Shown here: positions 1 to 10,325 of the stretch, piece after piece
Layout: each line of letters opens with the position of its first letter
Numbering within the stretch: position 1 is the first letter of the stretch
Origin: Azolla caroliniana
Taxonomy: Eukaryota > Plantae > Polypodiophyta
Assembly (NCBI GenBank): GCA_043228905.1
Contig: JBHGNT010001282.1
Location: 1 to 10,325 of the forward strand
Reading direction: 5' to 3'
DNA: 10,325 bases
Translations under genes and position numbers: made by a program
Notes under the pieces: model-generated
Database searches by the model: none
What the model saw: only the letters and a program-made list of their open reading frames with translations
Told to the model about the DNA's origin: nothing

Positions 1-719
1 AAATTGTTGATCAGCTTGCTCGGCTCGATCATTGTAGGCATCGTCCTCCACGATTGTGGATTCTCCACATCAGTCTCCTCTAACCATTGTCGATGCTTAT
101 CAAGACGGCTACAAGTCTTCTTCACCGCCGCCCAATCCGCTACCAAGCCATTTGGTTGCATTTCAACCTCCAAAAGGCTGCCCAATTCTCGCCGTTCTTT
201 CATATCCACCACCTTCAAGAACAGCAGGACTTTATCTCTTTCGAGAACTCGTTGATCCGCACTCAGAAGTCAGTTGTACTTTTGGTCAAATTCCGCATAT
301 ACTCCTGCCGCACACAGATTATTCCCTTTCTTCTCGATCCAAATCATTAGTGTATGTCGAGTCATCCTTGACGCATCTTCAAGCATGTATTCAGCAAGAA
401 CCACATTTTCGAACTCTGCCCAAGTTGTGTGCTCGTTTTAGATCTCCATTATGCGCTCACAGATCCCTGGTTCCACCACACGTTTAAAGCTAGAAATTTG
501 TTTGAGATCATTGACATCCCTCTGCTACATCTCGTTTAGATAGGTAGCAAGCAGATCTGTGATATTCTTGCCACCAAACCATCCAACTATCTCCACCGTT
601 CAATCAACATCTTTGTCGATTAAAGCCTCCCGATCTCTCACCTTCAGCATGTATTCCACGACGAACACCATGCCTTTCGTTAATTCCTCTCCTTGAGTTC
701 CGCTTGTCGAAGCCATCAT
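1..719 (-). pseudogene. gag: Retrotransposon gag (capsid-like), disabled by nonsense mutations
   Basis: One frame from ATG 719: MMASTSGTQGEELTKGMVFVVEYMLKVRDREALIDKDVD*TVEIVGWFGGKNITDLLATYLNEM*QRDVNDLKQISSFKRVVEPGICERIMEI*NEHTTWAEFENVVLAEYMLEDASRMTRHTLMIWIEKKGNNLCAAGVYAEFDQKYN*LLSADQRVLERDKVLLFLKVVDMKERRELG... It carries gag-type motifs (F.G.NIT..L, TW.EF...L..Y, VY.EF, K.LLFL). Stops at 600-602, 525-527, 438-440 and 270-272 are each explainable by one C->T change; no frameshift. Confidence 0.8.
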
Positions 720-747
720 CGCACTTGATATCCTCCTACCGCCTTGT

Positions 748-765
748 TTCACGTCGGGTTCACCA
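748..765 (-). other. Primer-binding site complementary to the 3' 18 nt of cytosolic tRNA-Trp
   Basis: Minus strand TGGTGAACCCGACGTGAA. The plus strand TTCACGTCGGGTTCACCA matches the 3' end of plant tRNA-Trp(CCA) as I recall it, including CCA. It lies 4 nt inside the LTR terminal CA. Confidence 0.85.
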
Positions 766-769
766 ACGA

Positions 770-1037
770 TGTTGCGAAAATACGACGAGTGTCGTGAACT
801 TGAGGTAGGACCCCGGGTCCTCCGACCAAAGGATATGAGATTCATCTGTTTATACTTTTAACAATTAATGGAAATGAGAAATATTGTAATTTTCTTTTCC
901 TTGGCTAATGAAAAATTACAATATTTTCTCATTTCCATTAATTGTTAAAAGTATAAACGCATGAATCTCATATCCTTTGGTCGGAAGCCCTGGGGTCCTA
1001 CCTCAAGTTCACGTATCCTCGTCGTATTTTCACCACA
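770..1037 (-). repeat. 5' LTR of the gypsy element, forming a near-perfect palindrome (arms 770-894 and 910-1037, 15-nt spacer)
   Basis: Minus strand begins TGTGGTGAAAATACGACGAG and ends CTCGTCGTATTTTCGCAACA. Manual alignment of the left arm to the reverse complement of the right arm gives about 9 mismatches and 3 single-nt gaps over about 128 columns (about 91%). Confidence 0.9.
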
Positions 1038-1167
1038 ATGCTCTAACTCACTACGTTCCACACGCTATGCAATTTCCTGCCCTGTACCACGATCACCTTG
1101 ATACGTACCCCGAAGGACTGAGGGTAGGCCATGTTCCTAACCGGCAACACTTGGTTGCTTAACATGA

Positions 1168-1800
1168 GAACAAGTGACTGAAGAGTATTCGATTACATCT
1201 TCATACAAGGAGTTATCGGAAAATTTTATTGCTTTTAAGGATTGGGTTAGTATTACATATTTGAAATTTTCCATTCTAGTTTATTACATATGTGAACAAT
1301 GTATGAGTTACTTCTTTTGTTGTTTCACATAGAAACCATGTCATAGCAAGAAGCCTGGAGAAGTCAAAGACAAACATGATTTTCCAACTTCCTTTCTTGC
1401 CCATCTTGAAAGAGCACAGAAACAAAACAATCGGTGCTTAATGAAGGCATTCGATGTGGACGATTACGGAACTTTCAAGAAGTTTAGCCACAAAAATGAT
1501 ATCACCCAAGAATTGTATTATAATGTGTACTATGGTGATGTGCCGAAGATGATCCAGAAGTTGCCAAACAAGCAGTACACGTTACTCATTGTGGATATTC
1601 CATACGATTTATATATGGTCGGATCTTCTTATGATGATTAACCATTTAGGTTCAAACAATTGGAGAAAATGGTGAAGGATTTCGCAAAAGTTGACCAAAA
1701 CGAGCTTGTGGAGAATAGTGGTCTTTCATAGCATGGACCAAAGATATTCTATGGCTCAAACGTTGAGATCTCGTTGTCATGGTGTAGAGAACCTTGTTTG
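1168..1800 (+). pseudogene. Decayed spliced gene fragment resembling a beta-class N6-adenine/N4-cytosine DNA methyltransferase (N6_N4_Mtase-like N-terminal half)
   Basis: Exon ~1168-1245 (EQVTEEYSITSSYKELSENFIAFKDW), phase-0 intron 1246-1332 (GTTAGT...TTTTGTTGTTTCACATAG), exon 1333-1800 ending TG|GTAAG. Translation: KPCHSKKPGEVKDKHDFPTSFLAHLERAQKQNNRCLMKAFDVDDYGTFKKFSHKNDITQELYYNVYYGDVPKMIQKLPNKQYTLLIVDIPYDLYMVGSSYDD*PFRFKQLEKMVKDFAK/(+1 frameshift near 1690)LTKTSLWRIVVFHSMDQRYSMAQTLRSRCHGVENLVW. This parallels the consensus I.GD...L..LP..S.DLIVTDPPY ... helix ... G.IYVFH ... N.IIW. DIPY is at 1594-1605. Confidence 0.6.
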
Positions 1801-2439
1801 GTAAGCCTTACTTTTGGGTGTGACCATAATGAGTCTCCAAGTGTATCCACTATATGATACATGTGTATGGATGTCCTCATTCATGTGTGTGTATTGGGAA
1901 AACTCTAGATGATATTTCACATGGACTTTATGTCCATAGTGTCCATATGTTTGATTTTCTTCTTTCTTACTAACATTAGAGTAAGGTATTATATCGGGCC
2001 GCATTCACTAAGTATTAGAGTGCATAATGCATAATCACTAACTATAGCTATCAAATGTTGTATACACCATGTTCGTAACCTGTAATTTAATTACATTTTA
2101 TGTCTAGAGGTCATGATTTTCTCAATATTTCAACCAACTTTGCAAATTACATAATATAGCATTTAAATTGAATAAGCAATTGTCATATTCTTAATTTTAA
2201 ATAAATTTTGTATTCAGAGATCATCAACTTTATAAATATTCAAAGAATACATGTTTTTTACTTTAAAACTTGTTAACTATTAATAATTTAGCAAATTCTA
2301 TATGGGTTGACGAACATGTGATACTAATGTAACAAGTTTCTATATATTGCATAAATTTGCAAAATTATAAAAAGAATCTAAAAATGGAATGCACTATCCT
2401 TCCACTTCTGAACGCGAACGTGTTAATTATAGGATCATG

Positions 2440-4040
2440 TTATGACATTGAGAGCATGTCAAAACCTTTATGAACTCTTTCAATGGGTCTCTCTATTTGA
2501 GGGACGTATGACTCCACAAGGTCATCTAACTCTTTTAAACAAAACCCTAAGTCCTAGAGAAATTCCATCAAGGCTCTTGTCAAGATTACAATCAATTTTT
2601 AGAGTCACGCGTGATCGTGTGGAAGTTGATGATGTATTTGTAAACCCACCAGTTGTAGGTTTCAGCCCATGCTAGAAGTCAAGCTGGTTACGACGTTTGG
2701 TACATCTCTAGTATGTCCTAACAAAATAAAGCAAGATAATCAAGAAACTATGGACTAAAATATGGCTAATGTTTCTTGACATACAAACCTTTCAAGACCC
2801 TCCATCTTGTCAAGTCAGTCTAGTTGGATCTTTCAATCAAACCTTATTGCATTATTTGCAACATGATAACAATGTAGGAAGTGCCCTTGACGGTGCCTAT
2901 ACGTGTTCTTGGTTTTGGTGATGGTTTTGGTGATGGTGGTTGTACATGAGTTGTCCTCCTAGTTTGTGTTTGCAATGGCATTAGAGAAGCACTTACGGAG
3001 GTCATCATACTCGAGCGTTTGTAAGAGAGCCAAGTGTGATATTATATCCTCATCTGTATACCCCGATACCATCGTGCAACTATATGGAGAATATAAGTGT
3101 TGGGATGGTTGATGGTAATTTCTCCAACATAAGTTCCATAATACCTAAAACACGTACATAAACAATTCTAGTATGTATGTGTGTGCATGAATGATTGATT
3201 GTAGGAATGAATGTGTGCATCAATTTATGTATGCTATATGTGTGTGACTGAATGTGTATGTATGAATGAGAATCTTGTGTATAAATGTTAGTTTGAATAT
3301 ATTTATGCTAGTTTATAATTGAATTGTTAAACGTAAGGTATCTATGTGTACGAGTGTATAAATGTACGTGCATGAATGTGTTCATTAATAAATTATTATA
3401 TGGATGTTTGTATATGATTGTGGTAATGAGTACATATATATGAAATCATAAATAGCCTGAATAATGTGCATGTGTCCATTACCATACACACTTACATTAC
3501 AATTTAACAATGAAGTCCCAAGTACCTTTGAGATATTGGATATATTTTTCTCGTGAATTAGAATGCTTGATGATAATATAAAAGGAAAGAAGGTGGTCAA
3601 TACAATGGTCCATGCATTGGGACATGAAGATTATAACAAGGGTGTAAGTGTGGTGTAGAACAACTTCGCATCATTTGATCGTGAAGTGCCCAATGATAAG
3701 GCTAAAGATAAGAACATGTGTGAAAACGAGATCCCTTGGAATAGTTTGGACAATGCCGTGACATAAATCTCCAAGGCTTCAAGCCTAGCCTACACTACAT
3801 TGGAAAATATGAGAGGACCATTGGCATTGTGCAACAATATGCACCTTAGAAGCTTTGAGTTGGAGCACTACTATACCCGGTAATGGAAATAAGAAGGTTG
3901 AAGGTTGTCTAGATGATGGCATGAATGTCCTCTCCAAAACTTCATCCCCAAGCTTCACTATACTTTGTAACTTTATGAAGCAATGAAGTTATATGGGAAC
4001 AAAGAATATGTAAAGGCCAAATTTGAGAAGTCATTTGCCA
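2440..4040 (-). pseudogene. Decayed multi-exon gene of unknown function, convergent with the methyltransferase-like fragment
   Basis: Putative minus-strand introns 3145-3495 (GTAAGT...GTGTTTTAG, phase 0) and 2718-2788 (GTTTGT...TTTTGTTAG, phase 2) join one reading frame: ...ARLEALEIYVTALSKLF...LLNCN|VLWNLCWRNYHQPSQHLYSPYSCTMVSGYTDEDIISHLALLQTLEYDDLRKCF...LDKMEGLER|TY*RC...(frameshift)ELDDLVESYVPQIERPIERVHKGFDMLSMS* (TAA 2440-2442). It has several stops and frameshifts, no recognised domain, and an approximate upstream boundary. Confidence 0.35.
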
Positions 4041-5116
4041 TATAGAAACATTTAATACATGCATAAAATCATAAACATACATACAATTGTACTTTGTACA
4101 TATATAAACATACAATCATTAATTTATACAAATGCATACATTCATTCATTTACACATGCATATAACAATCACACACGCACATTTTTTACAATCATTTGCA
4201 TACAATCATAGAAATATAAATGCATTAATTTATATACATATAAACATTGGCATAAGCTCTTCATCATTGCGACTTGTCATTTTATTTCCATTTGACATTC
4301 CTCACCATCTAGTTCTATATGTAGCTCAAATTTTAATGGTAACTACTAACGGAGGAGTAATAGGAACACTTCAAGAAAAGGAAATGAAGAACTATAAATA
4401 AAAGGGGTTGTACTCCCCTAAACTATATTACGGATAATGTTGCTTTCCATTACTTTATGAATGATAGATTAAGTAGAGTAGGCCTTTGACATTTATCTCA
4501 TTATACTGCAAATTACATTTTGCTTGATTTATACTTCATTTTCCATATATTTTAAGTAGAGTAATGCAAATATGGTCAAAACGATAGATGATGAAAAAAA
4601 AAACCATAAAAAATGTGGAAAAAAAACCTAATCCAAATTATGTTATTTAGATTTCGTAGATTAGACAAATAAAATTGCATATTGTATGTTATGTTGTTAT
4701 TGAAGTTATGGAAAAAGGATGGATCATGGGAGACGATACAATACCCCCCCAAAAAGAACAAAAAAATACGAAGAATATGCTGGGTAGGAATCTCCTCAAG
4801 GTCAACACAGATACAGAGGGTAGTGCGCACAGATGATGTTCAAAAGAATTCCTCTCTACATAATTTCCTGAAAAAGAGGTTTGAATATAATGAGTCTGTG
4901 CAGATTAAATTTTTCAATGAGTTGAATGGCGATTGAGCAGTGCATGATCTGTGGGTCTCCCCTTTAGATGACCTTACGAACGAGGAGAGCTCAATCAGAA
5001 TCTCCTGGTTCTAGCAGCGACACATCAATCCATCCTTACAGCGAAGGATTGACCAAAATGCATGATTCTCTGCAGATGATCCTCTCTGAGCAATAGACCA
5101 TGACTTGCTCATTCTG

Positions 5117-5167
<51 letters not shown>
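5117..5167. repeat. (TACATA)8 microsatellite
   Basis: Eight perfect TACATA units at 5117-5164 plus TAC, followed by degenerate TA/CA-rich sequence to about 5225. Confidence 0.95.
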
Positions 5168-5221
5168 TACATATACATGATATATATTATGTATATGTGT
5201 ATGTATACATACATTATTACA

Positions 5222-5248
5222 TATATAAACCCCTCTCTCTCTCTCTCT
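5222..5248 (+). promoter_or_regulatory. Probable core promoter of the GLR gene: TATA box and (CT)8 Y-patch
   Basis: TATATAAA at 5222-5229 is followed by (CT)8 at 5233-5248 and a pyrimidine-rich leader, about 90 nt upstream of ATG 5319. This is a typical plant core-promoter layout. Confidence 0.55.
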
Positions 5249-5318
5249 CCCTCGTCCCTTCCACCCCCTCAGTTCACACTTGGCCACCCGTTGGGGCCGT
5301 CATTCTCATCCCCCGACC

Positions 5319-5645
5319 ATGTATGCTCCAATGGGCCTCATCACGGCTCTCCTAGTGCTTGCCATCTTCTTCTCCCCTGAATTTCCGACTGCGCACGCGA
5401 CCAATTCCTCCAACTTGAAGATCCTTGTTCCTCTCAAACTTGGATTCGAGGAGTTTGTGAGTTGGCAATCGTCTGAGATACCGGTCACGCCCAACTCCGT
5501 CGTCAATTTCTCCGGCTTCGCCATCAATGTGTTTCAAGAATGCGTTGAGAAGCTTAATTATCGTATTAATTACACATTAATTGGCTATGGAGATGGCCTT
5601 GTAGACCCAACCTATAATGACCTTGTGCAAAAGCTTGTCTCTAAG
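5319..5645 (+). CDS. GLR: Glutamate receptor-like (GLR/iGluR-family) ion channel, exon 1: signal peptide + start of S1 ligand-binding segment
   Basis: ACCATG at 5319 starts MYAPMGLITALLVLAIFFSPEFPTAHA|TNSSNLKILVPLKLGFEEFVSW...FSGFAINVFQECVEKLNYRINYTLIGYGDGLVDPTYNDLVQKLVSK. This matches plant GLR S1 motifs (LRIGVP.K.GF.EFV; GFCIDVF; P.Y.DLV). 109 codons, ending AAG|GTATTA (phase 0). Confidence 0.9.
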
Positions 5646-6686
5646 GTATTACATTAGCTATACCTAATTTTTTTTTGTTTTTGTTGTAGTAATGACACTT
5701 AATTTTCGTAAAAATCAATCGCTTAAGGTTAATCATTTATGATAAATGGACCTCGATAATGTGTTTATATCTATGTTAGCAAGAATTTCTACGTGCACAT
5801 TAATGATAGAAAAGACATAAGGGATTGTGGCAATCCTCAAGTAGGATGTCATGGCTAGACAGGGAGAAACTAATATCTAAGTCCATAAAATACCTCGAGA
5901 TTATATGTAACAAATTACTAAGATTGTCCTAATATCATACCCCTTACCATGGAATCTCGTTCAAAGATTGACATAGGCACTAACAAATTGTTGATAATTC
6001 CATCTATAATTGAGGGTTTGATCCAGTGGACAAGAGTTTGAACTCCAATACATATGAGTGTTTTAAAAGTAATTTTTAGCATCGCTAAAATTATTTTGAC
6101 ATTCCATGATATACTATTCAAGCATCGGTTGGCCAAGGTAATGTTTTCTAGTTATTCTTGTAAGATCTATTTGATTAATTGTGCAAGATCTATATTTCTT
6201 AGCGCCAAATAAGTCAAATATGAGAGGCTTATTCGGTGAATAATTGGTTTTGTTGTATTGTATGGAAAAGCTACTCTCAAGAGAGTACGATGTGCTCACT
6301 TCGAAGAGATAAAGTAACTTTGTTAGTAATCCTTGTGTAGAATGGTCCAAGGAATAGTTTGAGCAAATTTAATACCAAAGATTGAAATTTTTACTCAAAG
6401 AAATACATGTGCAATCAAGTACAAGTGTATGGAGTAAGAGCCAAAAATGTATGCAGTAGAATCGCTTCGTATGGAGAGGGAGTTGTCCGATTTTGACATA
6501 CGGAAGCCTATTTGATGAAGATATTGCGTTATCTTTGAATGCCAAGCACACGGTGCTTTGAATTTCCACTGCTTGATAATGATATTTACATAGCATACAA
6601 CAAGTTGGATTAATAAGGTTTTAATTAATTCTGTGCTCCAGTAATACGTTCGTATTGGTTTTCACTATATGCATGCATGGTCATAG
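5646..6686 (+). other. GLR intron 1 (1041 nt, GT-AG, phase 0)
   Basis: Donor AAG|GTATTA at 5646 and acceptor TCATAG|GAC at 6685-6686 join VSK|DVDGVVADL in frame. Angiosperm GLRs have an intron at the equivalent position, just before xFDAVVGD. Confidence 0.85.
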
Positions 6687-6970
6687 GACGTAGATGGAGT
6701 AGTTGCTGATTTGACGATCACTAGTGACCGGTTACAGTTAGTAGACTTTACCCAGCCATATATAGGATCAAGTCTTCAAATGATCGCGCCACTTCAATCT
6801 AGGAGTAATATTTCATTCTGGACATTCATTTCCCCTTTCTCTTGGCAACTTTGGATAACCATTGGAGCATTATTTATTGTCACAATGTCTTTGATCTTCT
6901 TCGTGGAATGGTGTGGCCGAGCTGATGAACACGATGGAGGTTGGGGAAAGGCCTTCTCAAAATCGTTTTG
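6687..6970 (+). CDS. GLR: GLR exon 2: end of S1, M1 transmembrane helix, start of the M2 pore region
   Basis: DVDGVVADLTITSDRLQLVDFTQPYIGSSLQMIAPLQSRSNISFWTFISPFSWQLWITIGALFIVTMSLIFFVEWCGRADEHDGGWGKAFSKSFW carries the hallmark D.TI...R...VDFTQPY and W.F..PF...LW motifs. It ends TG|GTAAG (phase 2, split Trp), the conserved plant GLR intron site. Later exons are not in the window. Confidence 0.93.
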
Positions 6971-7252
6971 GTAAGAACTCATGATCACCTCATATCATAT
7001 TGTTTGTATCAAACTAGATTTTTCAACACCTCATATTAGTGTGTAATTTAAACGCACACAACATATGAATGCGAATATTTAATTGTATATATTGATAATA
7101 AATATGTTAAATTCGAGTCATAATATGGCATTGATGGCAATTGACAAGGTGCGGAACAACTTTCAATAGCAGGTACTATGATATTGACAAGGGATACAAG
7201 ACTCTCTTAGGTGGAGGGTTTGTCGAGGTAGTGTTTATAGCAAAAAGAAGAC

Positions 7253-7430
7253 AACCCAAACTTGAAGATAGATGTCTAGGGTTTACGGTTTAGGAACATG
7301 GAATTGGACGAGGTCCGGGCTGGGAGTACATGTGTAATATCGCGCTTTATATCAAAATGAAGTTAACCCAAACCCAAAGATAGATGTCTAGGTTTCTCAA
7401 GTAACCCTCACCTAATAGGGTTTAGGGTTT
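7253..7430. repeat. Short imperfect direct repeat plus telomere-like/telo-box motifs
   Basis: AACCCAAACTTGAAGATAGATGTCTAGGGTTT (7253-7284) and AACCCAAACCCAAAGATAGATGTCTAGGTTT (7365-7395) share the exact 16-mer AAGATAGATGTCTAGG. TAGGGTTTAGGGTTT lies at 7416-7430. Confidence 0.7.
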
Positions 7431-7945
7431 CATAGTAACTGCTACCCAATTGCTCTAGATTGTTTTCCAGGAGCTATTTAGACAACAATCTTACGATTGA
7501 TTGCTAGCCATAGTTGGTTGGGAGATTAGTTACAAGCATAAACTGAAAGACATGAAGGGGATAGATATCATGAGGAATGTAGGAAGACAATGTGTTGTTG
7601 AAGAAGAGAAAAATCTAGAGACGTGAACCATGGGTAGAGTTCATCATAACAATAAATATATTAGGAAAATAAATATATCAAGCAGCTAAAATTACAAGTT
7701 AGTTACCTTCGACGGAGAGTTACTTGGGTGTTGAAGGACTATAGACTATGCCCTCACTAGTGTGCATTATATAATTGAGTACCTAACTAACATACTACGC
7801 CTTGCCTCATCTCATCTTTCAAGATCCTTGTCCCGTTAGGAGCATCTACCGTTCAACAAAGCTTTTGCTTGAGTAAATGACAATAGAATAGTATGCTTGC
7901 CCAAATCTTCAACTACAAACGTGTTGGTCTTCGATTACTGAGATT

Positions 7946-8444
7946 CGTGAGGAAATCCGATTATGAAATGCACAATAATGCGGGAACAAAAAAATAGGAA
8001 ATGCACAGAGTACACAGTTTTACGTGGAAGTCCTAAACAGGGAAAACCACGGGAATTGAGATCCACTATACAATGGAGAATACAAAGGAGACAATATAAA
8101 ACACTCTCTCTGCACAGAGTCTTGGCGTCACTCTCACTCTCACTCTTCACTCTGTTCCTACTACTCTTACTTCTATTATTATACTAATAATAATAGAAAA
8201 TAATCAACCGATTGATTGAATAGTCAATTCAACTAGTCGACTCTAGTGTCGACTGTCCAGTTCGCCCGACTAATCGGCCTTGTCGTTGACAGTCCGGTCG
8301 GCTCGACTAGTCGGTCTAGTTTTCGACTTGGATCCTCTGTTGTCGACTCTCCTTGACATCGACTGTTGTCTCCCGGCCCGACCAGTCAGCTACTCCTTGT
8401 CTTCGACTATCGGCTCCTCCCATAGGAGGGACATATCCCTAACA
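7946..8444 (-). repeat. 3' LTR of the copia element (about 500 bp)
   Basis: Minus strand starts TGTTAGGGATATG at 8444, 2 nt after the PPT. It has a CGAC-rich U3, an AT-rich TATA-like segment near 8170-8195, a GA-rich R region and a T-rich U5. The distal end is only resolved to 7922-7948. Confidence 0.8.
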
Positions 8445-10325
8445 AACTCCCCCTTCACTCCTATGGGTGGAGTTAGTTAGCCCTGTCCTTTGTCGACTTA
8501 CTTTGAGTTTGTCCATCGATAGGTTCTTCGTGAGCATGTCGGATCCATTTTAGTCAGTATGGGTCTTCACAAGAGTAAACTCTCCATCTTCCACTCTCTC
8601 CTGTAACCAGTGATACCTTCTCTATATGTGCTTGGTTCAGGAGTGGTACATAGCGTTCTTGGCTAGATGTATGGGGTTGTGGCTATCACAGTGAAGCAAG
8701 GACTCCCTTTGCTTCATTCCTAACTCACTGATCAGCTCTTTTCCGGCCTCTACCGCTGCCATATACTCTGCCTCTATGGTCAACAAGGCCACATATTTTT
8801 TGAAGTTGTGACTGCCATGACATTACTCCCCATGCATAAGTCATCATGTACCCTGAAGTGGATGAACTTGAGTTTGTGTCCCCCAATGTTTCCAAGTCGG
8901 TAAACCCTTCAACCATACCTTAGGCATACCCCAAAGGTGCCTTTCAAGTACTTGAGTATTTATTTAACAGTTGCCCAATGTTCTCTTCCAAGATTACTCC
9001 TATATCGGCTTATTGTCCCCATAGCAAATGCTATGTATGGTCTCGTACAAACCATAGCATACATTAAACTGCCGACGGCTAAGGCATATCGTACTTTCCT
9101 CATCTCAACCTTTTCTTTCTCACCCCTTAGGCATTGCTTAACATTCAACTTAGTTGGCCGGTAACATAGAGCCGACTAGCTTTGCTTCCGAGATGTTGAA
9201 TCTTTCTAGGATCTTTGTCACATACTTCTCTTGTGACAACCACAACACTTTCTTAGTTCTGTCCCAAACTATGTGCATCCCTAAAATCTGTTTAGCGGGT
9301 CCAAGATCTTTTATTGCAAACAACTTGCCTAGAGCTTTCTTTTAGCTCAAGATCCTCTTCATGTCTTGTCCGACTCTCAAGATGTCATCCACATATAATA
9401 AGAGAATTAAGAAGTAACCTTCATCATACCTCTTTACATACACATAGTGATCAACTTGTGTTTTCTGGAACCTATATTCCAACATGAAGGACTCGAACTT
9501 CTTATAACATTGGCATGGAGCTTGTTTTGAACCATACAAGATTTTCTTTAGTTGACATAGTAGGTTCTCTTTCTCTTTCTTCGCAAAGACTTTGGGCTAA
9601 TGTGGGACATCACCTTTCAATGGTATTGAGGGAGACCTATTGATCAAATAAACAGTTGTGTACATCGCCTCAGTCCAGTACATTTTCGCCAGCATAGCAT
9701 GCAACATCATGCTCCTTACTCTTTCCATTATCATCTGATTCATCCTCTTTGTAAGCTTGTTTATTGCTGGGTTCTTTGGCACTGTGTATTCGATTCGAAT
9801 ACTTTGGTCCTTGCAGTATTCTTTGAAATGCCCTCTATATTCGCCACTGTTGTCGGTTCGGACCACCTTCAAGTTCTGACTTGACTCTCTTTTTGCCCTT
9901 GCTTGGTACTCCTTGAAGAACGACAATACTTGATCCTTCAATTTTAGTACTAAAGTCCACAATTTTCGACTGTAGTCATCGATGAACGTGACGAAGTACT
10001 GTCCGCCTCGATGTGATGGAGCCTCTACATAGCACACGTTGGTGTGCACTAGTTCCAAGAGCACTTCTCTTCTTGGTGGTCTTGAGTAGAATGCTGCTCT
10101 ATTCTACTTTCCGACTAAGCAGCCGACACACTTCTCCAAGTGTACTCCTTTCACTTCCGGGAGAAGTTCCTGGTCAGCTAGTAGATGCATTCCCTTCTAA
10201 CTCATATGGTCTAGCCTCTTATGCCATAACTCTCCACTCGAGTTGGCTACCAAGTTCACTTTCGACTTGTACAGTCGGGCATGCATCATATACAATGTGC
10301 CCTCTTTTTGTGCTCGGGCCACTAT
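8439..10325 (-). pseudogene. pol: Copia pol (GAG-pre-integrase HHCC, integrase core, RT, RNase H), disabled
   Basis: HHCC: ELWHKRLDHMS*KG...CVGCLVGK (~10110-10230). Integrase: LVHTNVC...YFVTFIDDYSRKLW...RTDNSGEY...NKLTKRMN (9597-10064). RT: LYGSKQAP...LLYVDDIL (YVDD at 9384-9395) and AVGSLMYAMVCTRP. RNase H: GFTD...STSGY...EAEY...HCDS...TKHI...SDMLTK. Multiple stops, frameshifts and deletions; two DDE residues are altered (D->N, E->K). Confidence 0.92.
8447..8461 (-). other. Polypurine tract of the copia element
   Basis: Minus strand GGAGTGAAGGGGGAG, then TT, then the LTR TG. Confidence 0.85.

Follow-up and report, generated by a model that had tools for sequence, protein, structure and literature searches.

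A decayed exon of a Sola1-like transposon accessory gene in Azolla caroliniana, with a predicted ParB-like/amino-methyltransferase product

The relic and its neighbours

The window, by which we mean the whole stretch of DNA analysed here, comprises 10,325 nucleotides of Azolla caroliniana (assembly GCA_043228905.1, contig JBHGNT010001282.1, positions 1 to 10,325 of the forward strand). Its positions 1333 to 1800 (+) are almost certainly exon 4 of an accessory gene, predicted to have six exons and to encode 974 amino acids, that belongs to a Sola1-like transposon. What survives of the element in the window, from 1149 to 2424, is a portion of exon 3 followed by exon 4, the 3′ end and the right terminal repeat. 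Its leftmost similarity to intact copies in blastn is at 1149, where the 3′ part of exon 3 begins (1149 to 1245, +), bounded on the other side, in agreement with the exon model, by a donor GT at 1246-1247. Intron 3 (1246 to 1332, +), a GT...AG intron legible in the sequence and shared with element families A and B, leads to exon 4, which lies between an AG ending at 1332 and a GT at 1801-1802. This exon, broken in the present copy, encodes a helical linker and the catalytic half of a beta-class amino-methyltransferase (in-frame peptide YNVYYGDVPKMIQKLPNKQYTLLIVDIPY). Motif IV, which reads DIPY, is found at 1594 to 1605 (+), and the family profile described below aligns it with the M.MboIIA catalytic motif. 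A TAA stop occurs at 1639-1641, the segments WRIVVFHS and VENLVW are read in the next frame, and the alignment to the nearest relative fetched (89% identical) reveals an extra base at about 1690. Direct reading and alignment thus place the splice sites, the motifs, the stop and the frameshift where the original prediction, made from the letters of the sequence, had put them.

Exons 5 and 6 had no match anywhere in the window, and the match to the nearest relative breaks off at 1810 and resumes at 1825, on the far side of these two exons. We therefore place an internal deletion junction at approximately 1811 to 1824, where both exons, with the SAM-binding motif, and part of the 3′ region are gone; the C-terminal half of the enzyme, which the first reading had looked for in vain, is indeed missing. 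The 3′ non-coding part of the transposon follows (1825 to 2388; it matches L078, the nearest relative, piecewise at 82-91% identity), and then the right terminal inverted repeat (2389 to 2424), which ends in GTGTT. On the chromosome copy that matches the window, the left half was not found in the 20 kb upstream. With one stop, one frameshift, exons 5 and 6 deleted and the left half lost, the window copy is dead, as expected of the decayed copy it had been taken for.

A genome search with exon 4 returned 1091 first-look candidates; among the 150 that were scored, many are open over exactly 156 codons, the length of exon 4, and the exon is thus not a chance frame. Near-identical copies of the relic itself are found clustered on contig C2 and also on small contigs. 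In the single C2 copy that was aligned to the whole window the flanks also match at 99%, which points to spread of the window copy by segmental duplication and not by transposition. The duplicates differ by 14 nonsynonymous and two synonymous changes (ratio 1.56, from small counts), indicating that the window copy is free of constraint.

Several other features lie around the relic. A Ty3/Gypsy-like remnant with gag-like frames (3-1148, −) adjoins it at 1148/1149, and the pol-like frames of this remnant are found farther upstream on the C2 copy. Inside the remnant sits a long inverted repeat (770-1037), with 89-nt arms that are 94% complementary and additional outer arms of 20 nt, which is a possible source of hairpin RNA and of which partial copies occur upstream on C2. 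AT-rich degenerate repeats at 3170-3420 and 4070-4250, in opposite orientation, flank a stretch of unplaced origin (about 2430-4400). Exons of a glutamate-receptor-like gene, with weak matches to Lig_chan-Glu_bd and SBP_bac_3, occupy 5319-6974 (+). C2 has this receptor segment again near 21.06 Mb, and the adjacent relic turns up about seven times over 21.04-21.24 Mb, which suggests a tandem array. A decayed Copia-like LTR retrotransposon with an integrase match (about 7700-10325, −) appears to have inserted into one of the introns of the receptor gene.

The Sola1-like transposon and its accessory gene

Carriage by a mobile element had been thought probable, and a comparison of the ten young copies listed, each with 10 kb to either side, bears this out: they have in common a 9.4-kb unit with sharp ends (in one of the ten, the left end falls outside its stretch). 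Elements range from 7 to 9.4 kb and end in inverted repeats beginning with AACAC. They are bordered by a 4-bp target site duplication in seven of the eight copies in which both ends were read, and in 10 of the 11 terminal-repeat pairs found among 20 further loci; the combination of such a duplication with terminal inverted repeats that is expected of Sola was found in 17 of the 19 evaluable insertions. The genome contains 685 exact matches to the terminal repeats of family A and 357 to those of families B and C, as against none in reversed controls, which implies several hundred elements. At least three families (A, B and C) share the same layout; the proteins of A are about 50% identical to those of B/C. 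Copies from these families frequently lie inside or beside one another, as at L052, L075, L078 and L071.

On the strand opposite the accessory gene, the element encodes a protein of 927 amino acids whose only Pfam match is DUF7869 (E 1.8e-51) and which we read as the transposase. Three candidate aspartates, in IDG, QLDN and HIDQ, are kept in families A to C, their assignment to a catalytic triad being our own reading, made apart from any Sola profile. The N-terminus of this protein (L043:3623-6403, −) contains short repeated FSIEEY-like motifs in all three families, and its end forms a conserved beta-rich domain that bears no Pfam name. Sola elements are defined, in the available part of PMC10741241, by a DDD transposase and a 4-bp target site duplication. 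Since the duplication seen here fits that definition and the termini start with AAC as in the Sola1 of Ectocarpus, we regard the carrier as a Sola1-like cut-and-paste DNA transposon, a name given by these features and independent of the Repbase Sola1 sequences.

The accessory gene model has six exons, five GT-AG introns and 974 codons free of internal stops. The family-B copy L059 gives 969 amino acids with the same introns, and the junction of exons 2 and 3 is identical in gene models of Ceratopteris and Ginkgo; the model supports the spliced gene that had been proposed. Five of the 12 family-A copies keep an open frame, and in two of these five the transposase is open as well. Since the 12 had been selected for their exon-4 score, the proportion of intact ones is biased upward. 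The gene would be spliced and transcribed divergently from the transposase. A look-up of RNA data for the intact exons listed none that contained them, and two runs with the same label gave no contig matching them, which we count neither for nor against expression.

The methyltransferase half

Exon 4 is silent on its own. Neither the window exon nor its intact counterpart matched PF01555 in a Pfam scan, searches with exon 4 alone gave no methyltransferase in Pfam or the PDB (CcrM reached only E 0.096), and an exon-4 profile found non-significant, unrelated PDB matches only. It is the downstream exons and the family profile that carry the methyltransferase call. In an intact copy, exon 5 scored 34.2 bits against PF01555, for which the curated cut-off is 26.7, and all 150 scored matches of a genome search with PF01555 were above this cut-off. 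Exon 5 carries NPYQKP and DLFSGTG, the latter spanning the junction with exon 6, and the motif order is permuted, DIPY in exon 4 preceding the SAM-binding DLFSGTG of exons 5 and 6; intact relatives thus have the downstream motif of FxGxG type that the original prediction called for.

A full HMMER search with the exon-4 profile collected 158 proteins at E ≤0.001; word-index protein searches for longer relatives yielded none among 358 candidates for exon 4 and none among 196 for exons 5 and 6. When 38 longer relatives were scanned, 18 matched PF01555 and 15 of these passed the cut-off, two of them spanning the profile from position 3-5 to 218. A family profile built from 31 sequences aligned with M.MboIIA from motif IV through motif I (E 5.5e-10), with D-x-P-Y on the catalytic motif, and M1.HpyAVI, CcrM and M.RsrI also scored with it, above the 4mC enzymes. 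The window peptide matches this profile with a probability of 98.4, partly by construction. An AlphaFold model (pLDDT 74.9) of the relative P0115, which is 34% identical to the host protein and stands in for it, matched CcrM (E 1.9e-13, probability 1.0) and M.MboIIA (4.3e-12). The 4mC enzymes follow closely (rotifer N4CMT 1.0e-10, PvuII 1.2e-10), and the fold consequently does not decide which base is modified. The downstream exons, the profile alignment and the CcrM-like model agree with the proposed assignment to the beta-class amino-methyltransferases, and none of the three outcomes named beforehand as fatal to it was encountered (no profile or structure match, homologues without the D-x-P-Y and IW/VW positions, or no homologue with a SAM-binding motif downstream). 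Like CcrM, M.MboIIA, M1.HpyAVI and M.RsrI, the family has motif IV before motif I and the same fold, and can be aligned with them end to end; it differs by its low identity (17-21%), by DIPY in place of DPPY and by being spliced, and, when set against beta-class 6mA enzymes, by a long N-terminal ParB-like half and an acidic tail.

The DIPY motif had been put down either to decay or to a variant of the family. The second explanation holds and the first does not: DIPY is read in all 25 loci caught by the pattern (30 loci fetched), and DPPY in none of the 125 aligned stretches that cover all four columns. The second position is I, A, V, L or F, so that the family departs from the canonical (D/N/S)PP(Y/F); this weakens the case for calling it a canonical member of the class but leaves the fold assignment as it is. 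Some relatives read DLPR or DIPH at this place. An unnamed subgroup (P0124, P0142, P0151 and P0178) combines DLPR with a retained SAM-binding region, and is possibly an inactive or re-purposed branch.

Selection on the coding sequence was estimated from families B and C, the only pair quoted because both comparisons with A have saturated dS. The dN/dS ratio is 0.055 for the methyltransferase core (bootstrap 0.03-0.09; 225 codons) and 0.057 for exon 4, against 0.176 for the transposase; within family A, whole-gene ratios are 0.11-0.18 (9 comparisons). Judged by these ratios, the methyltransferase core is under stronger purifying selection than the transposase, and the accessory gene was therefore needed by the active lineages of the element. 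These values bear on the idea that the protein is a non-catalytic helper, which binds the palindromes described below and aids transcription or transpososome assembly, its fold only binding SAM or DNA. The non-canonical DIPY, the DLPR of some relatives, a review that holds the methyltransferase domains borne by DIRS elements to be likely inactive, and the inactivity in E. coli of DAM enzymes of retrotransposons, which are of a different family (bioRxiv 10.64898/2026.05.21.726589, in its available part), all speak for a helper. However, at motif IV 115 of the stretches keep D, 118 keep P and 90 keep Y, all three families (A, B and C) retain DLFSGTG and the acidic motif after it, and the core ratio is below that of the transposase; we thus consider a helper unlikely, and the methyltransferase of intact copies to be probably active.

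An active enzyme might write 4mC, or act on RNA or single-stranded DNA such as element transcripts or excision intermediates. PF01555 covers 6mA and 4mC enzymes alike, 4mC structures score near the 6mA ones, and eukaryotic relatives of this class have, according to a review, often shifted to RNA. On the other hand, the known eukaryotic 4mC enzymes have SPPY or TSPPY in the descriptions available, no S occurs at the first motif position among the aligned stretches listed, the top sequence and fold matches are 6mA DNA enzymes, and the fused domain has a ParB fold, which makes such an activity improbable. As far as the available sources go, 6mA enzymes typically have a motif IV led by aspartate and 4mC enzymes have SPPY, and the leading aspartate here points to 6mA. 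If the enzyme is active, its target is therefore likely adenine rather than cytosine.

The ParB-like half and the intron-1 palindromes

The other half of the protein had no Pfam match by sequence. When the host's own domain was modelled (pLDDT 82), ParB and Noc filled all top 10 Foldseek rows (best E 5e-5), with 7BNR as the best structural match. The model superimposes on PadC with a Z of 9.9 (rmsd 2.8, 96 aligned) and on ParB/Srx folds with Z 8-9.9, while the helical part that follows resembles the DNA-binding domain of KorB weakly (Z 5.3, rmsd 4.1, 103 aligned). The modelled N-terminal half thus folds like ParB. The canonical CTP-binding arginine patch of ParB is GxxR; the family differs from it, having GG(S/N/C)H..EARR where the patch falls.

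All copies of a 19-bp palindrome were found inside intron 1 of the accessory gene, seven in the copy examined for family A and 16 in that for family B. The palindrome reads CTCGATACG-N-CGTATCGAG in family A and TCCGATGCA-N-TGCATCGGA in families B and C, the arms of A and B/C sharing five of nine bases and differing by transitions only; in the other non-coding DNA, the families compared have at most one match, of 53 bp (E 0.01). Perfect palindromes make up 79 of 96 sites in A and 34 of 37 in B. The pattern has 3886 matches genome-wide, compared with three for the control, and none in the window. Since the pattern was derived from these families, the 3886 matches reflect copy number and not function. 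We regard the palindromes as candidate binding sites.

Alternatively, an active DNA methyltransferase may not be aimed at the element at all, the palindromes being transposase sites, promoter elements or self-homogenising hairpins. This would suit the variation in array size, from one to 16 sites, and the three of 20 diverse loci without any site, and the cysteine-rich and C-terminal regions of the transposase could themselves bind DNA. However, the arrays lie within intron 1 of the accessory gene in both family groups, and the arrays of red-algal elements adjoin a ParB-bearing gene (bioRxiv 10.1101/2025.02.11.637652, in its available part), so that we hold an enzyme with other targets to be rather implausible, and slightly favour one aimed at the element through the palindromes.

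Relatives in other organisms

Of 150 relatives listed, 30 were looked up; the 14 that carried an organism name are all streptophytes (Chara 5, Riccia 3, Adiantum 3, Ceratopteris 1, Diphasiastrum 1, Ginkgo 1). No flowering plant occurs among the named relatives of these 30, and no brown- or red-algal protein among the 14. A search with the ParB-like half (33 matches) added Ceratopteris, two from Ginkgo and Calypogeia. Green-algal relatives are also said to have been reported, by Iyer in 2011. A tree of 24 methyltransferase regions has weak deep support and contains no prokaryotic outgroup, and for these reasons we make no claim on donor or descent. The Ginkgo relative matches 554 phage records, all below 60% identity (24-28% among the matches listed), which is compatible with a distant origin in prokaryotes but identifies no donor. 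The phage matches and the prokaryote-type domains could also evoke bacterial contamination or a recent one-off gene transfer; against this stand the five conserved GT-AG introns, the hundreds of chromosomal insertions with target site duplications and the range of relatives from Chara to Ginkgo, and we attach next to no weight to it.

Comparison with known systems

The closest description is that of Sola1-1_Ec32 of Ectocarpus, for which the available part of PMC12477816 reports a 1104-aa ParB-methyltransferase gene opposite the transposase and a proposal of self-modification by its authors. That element is of Sola1 type and the present one Sola1-like; both show 4-bp target site duplications and termini starting with AAC (AACCG there, AACAC here), and both have one opposite-strand gene of about 1000 amino acids with ParB-like and N4C/N6A methyltransferase domains. 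The Ectocarpus element resides in a brown alga, is 21.5 kb long with a 282-bp terminal inverted repeat and has two intact copies, whereas the present one is found in a land plant as three families of 7-9.4 kb with short terminal repeats and hundreds of copies. That account, in the part available, contains neither a selection test nor a palindrome array.

In red algae, the Plavaka genes PAG2/PAG3 involve a PF01555 methylase and a ParB-like domain for which 7BNR is likewise the best structural match, and tandem inverted-repeat arrays lie beside the ParB gene (available part of bioRxiv 10.1101/2025.02.11.637652). There the transposase is of EnSpm type, and the methylase is fused to SET and the ParB domain to a 2OG oxygenase in separate genes, whereas here ParB and methylase are joined in one protein. 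The likeness to the Ectocarpus and red-algal proteins is one of description and layout, not of compared sequences, and it is against these descriptions, as far as available, that we find both domains on a DNA transposon opposite the transposase.

Marchantia MpDN4MT1 and the bdelloid N4CMT are also prokaryotic-type beta-class amino-methyltransferases of multicellular eukaryotes. According to the sources available, however, they belong to the host, have SPPY motifs and write 4mC, and the Marchantia protein has no extra domains, whereas the present family is transposon cargo with a D-type motif and a ParB-like domain. Retrotransposons carrying DAM are a further case of mobile elements with prokaryote-type adenine methyltransferases, of a different family (Dam, with an NPP motif) and on retroelements. 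The available part of their description (bioRxiv 10.64898/2026.05.21.726589) proposes the enrichment of 6mA on these retroelements as an advantage, gives DAM-LTRs as absent from Streptophyta, a group without abundant genomic 6mA, and notes that enzyme-made 6mA in multicellular eukaryotes is disputed.

As the design is known from the Ectocarpus and red-algal transposons, the idea is less new than was implied. Our literature search found no report of the gene in transposons of land plants or other streptophytes, which the bioRxiv supplements or Repbase (Physcomitrella Sola1) may describe, and nothing on the element appears in the available parts of PMC4738411, PMC12344493, PMC5751038, PMC5753468, PMC9033089, PMC6431247, PMC12633428 and PMC12695648. 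As far as searched, we did not find in print the presence in streptophytes and land plants, the selection test or the named candidate sites.

Proposed function and significance

Taken together, we propose that intact copies would make a fusion of a ParB-like domain with a beta-class amino-methyltransferase, predicted at 974 amino acids, a dimer of which would recognise the 19-bp palindromes as ParB recognises parS. The methyltransferase would then mark adenines at or near the shared CGAT core, and N6-methyladenine on the element's own DNA would help its expression or mobility against 5mC silencing by the host. We give the whole chain up to self-directed 6mA marking a probability of roughly 0.55. 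The fuller picture, of a streptophyte-wide transposon lineage, intact and recently mobile here, whose ParB-guided 6mA writer loads at the intron-1 palindromes and marks its own element to counter 5mC silencing, is tentative, and we would not bet on it.

Gene models annotated as 'DNA methylase N-4/N-6' or as hypothetical in Chara, Riccia, ferns and Ginkgo are probably transposon cargo. The element is also a test case for the idea of self-modifying accessory genes that arose from algal transposons, in the available accounts of which no functional test appears. For the question of 6mA, the genome of Azolla caroliniana provides a candidate for the writer, together with intact copies and predicted sites in the thousands; if the proposal is true, land plants would have enzyme-made 6mA that is restricted to transposons.
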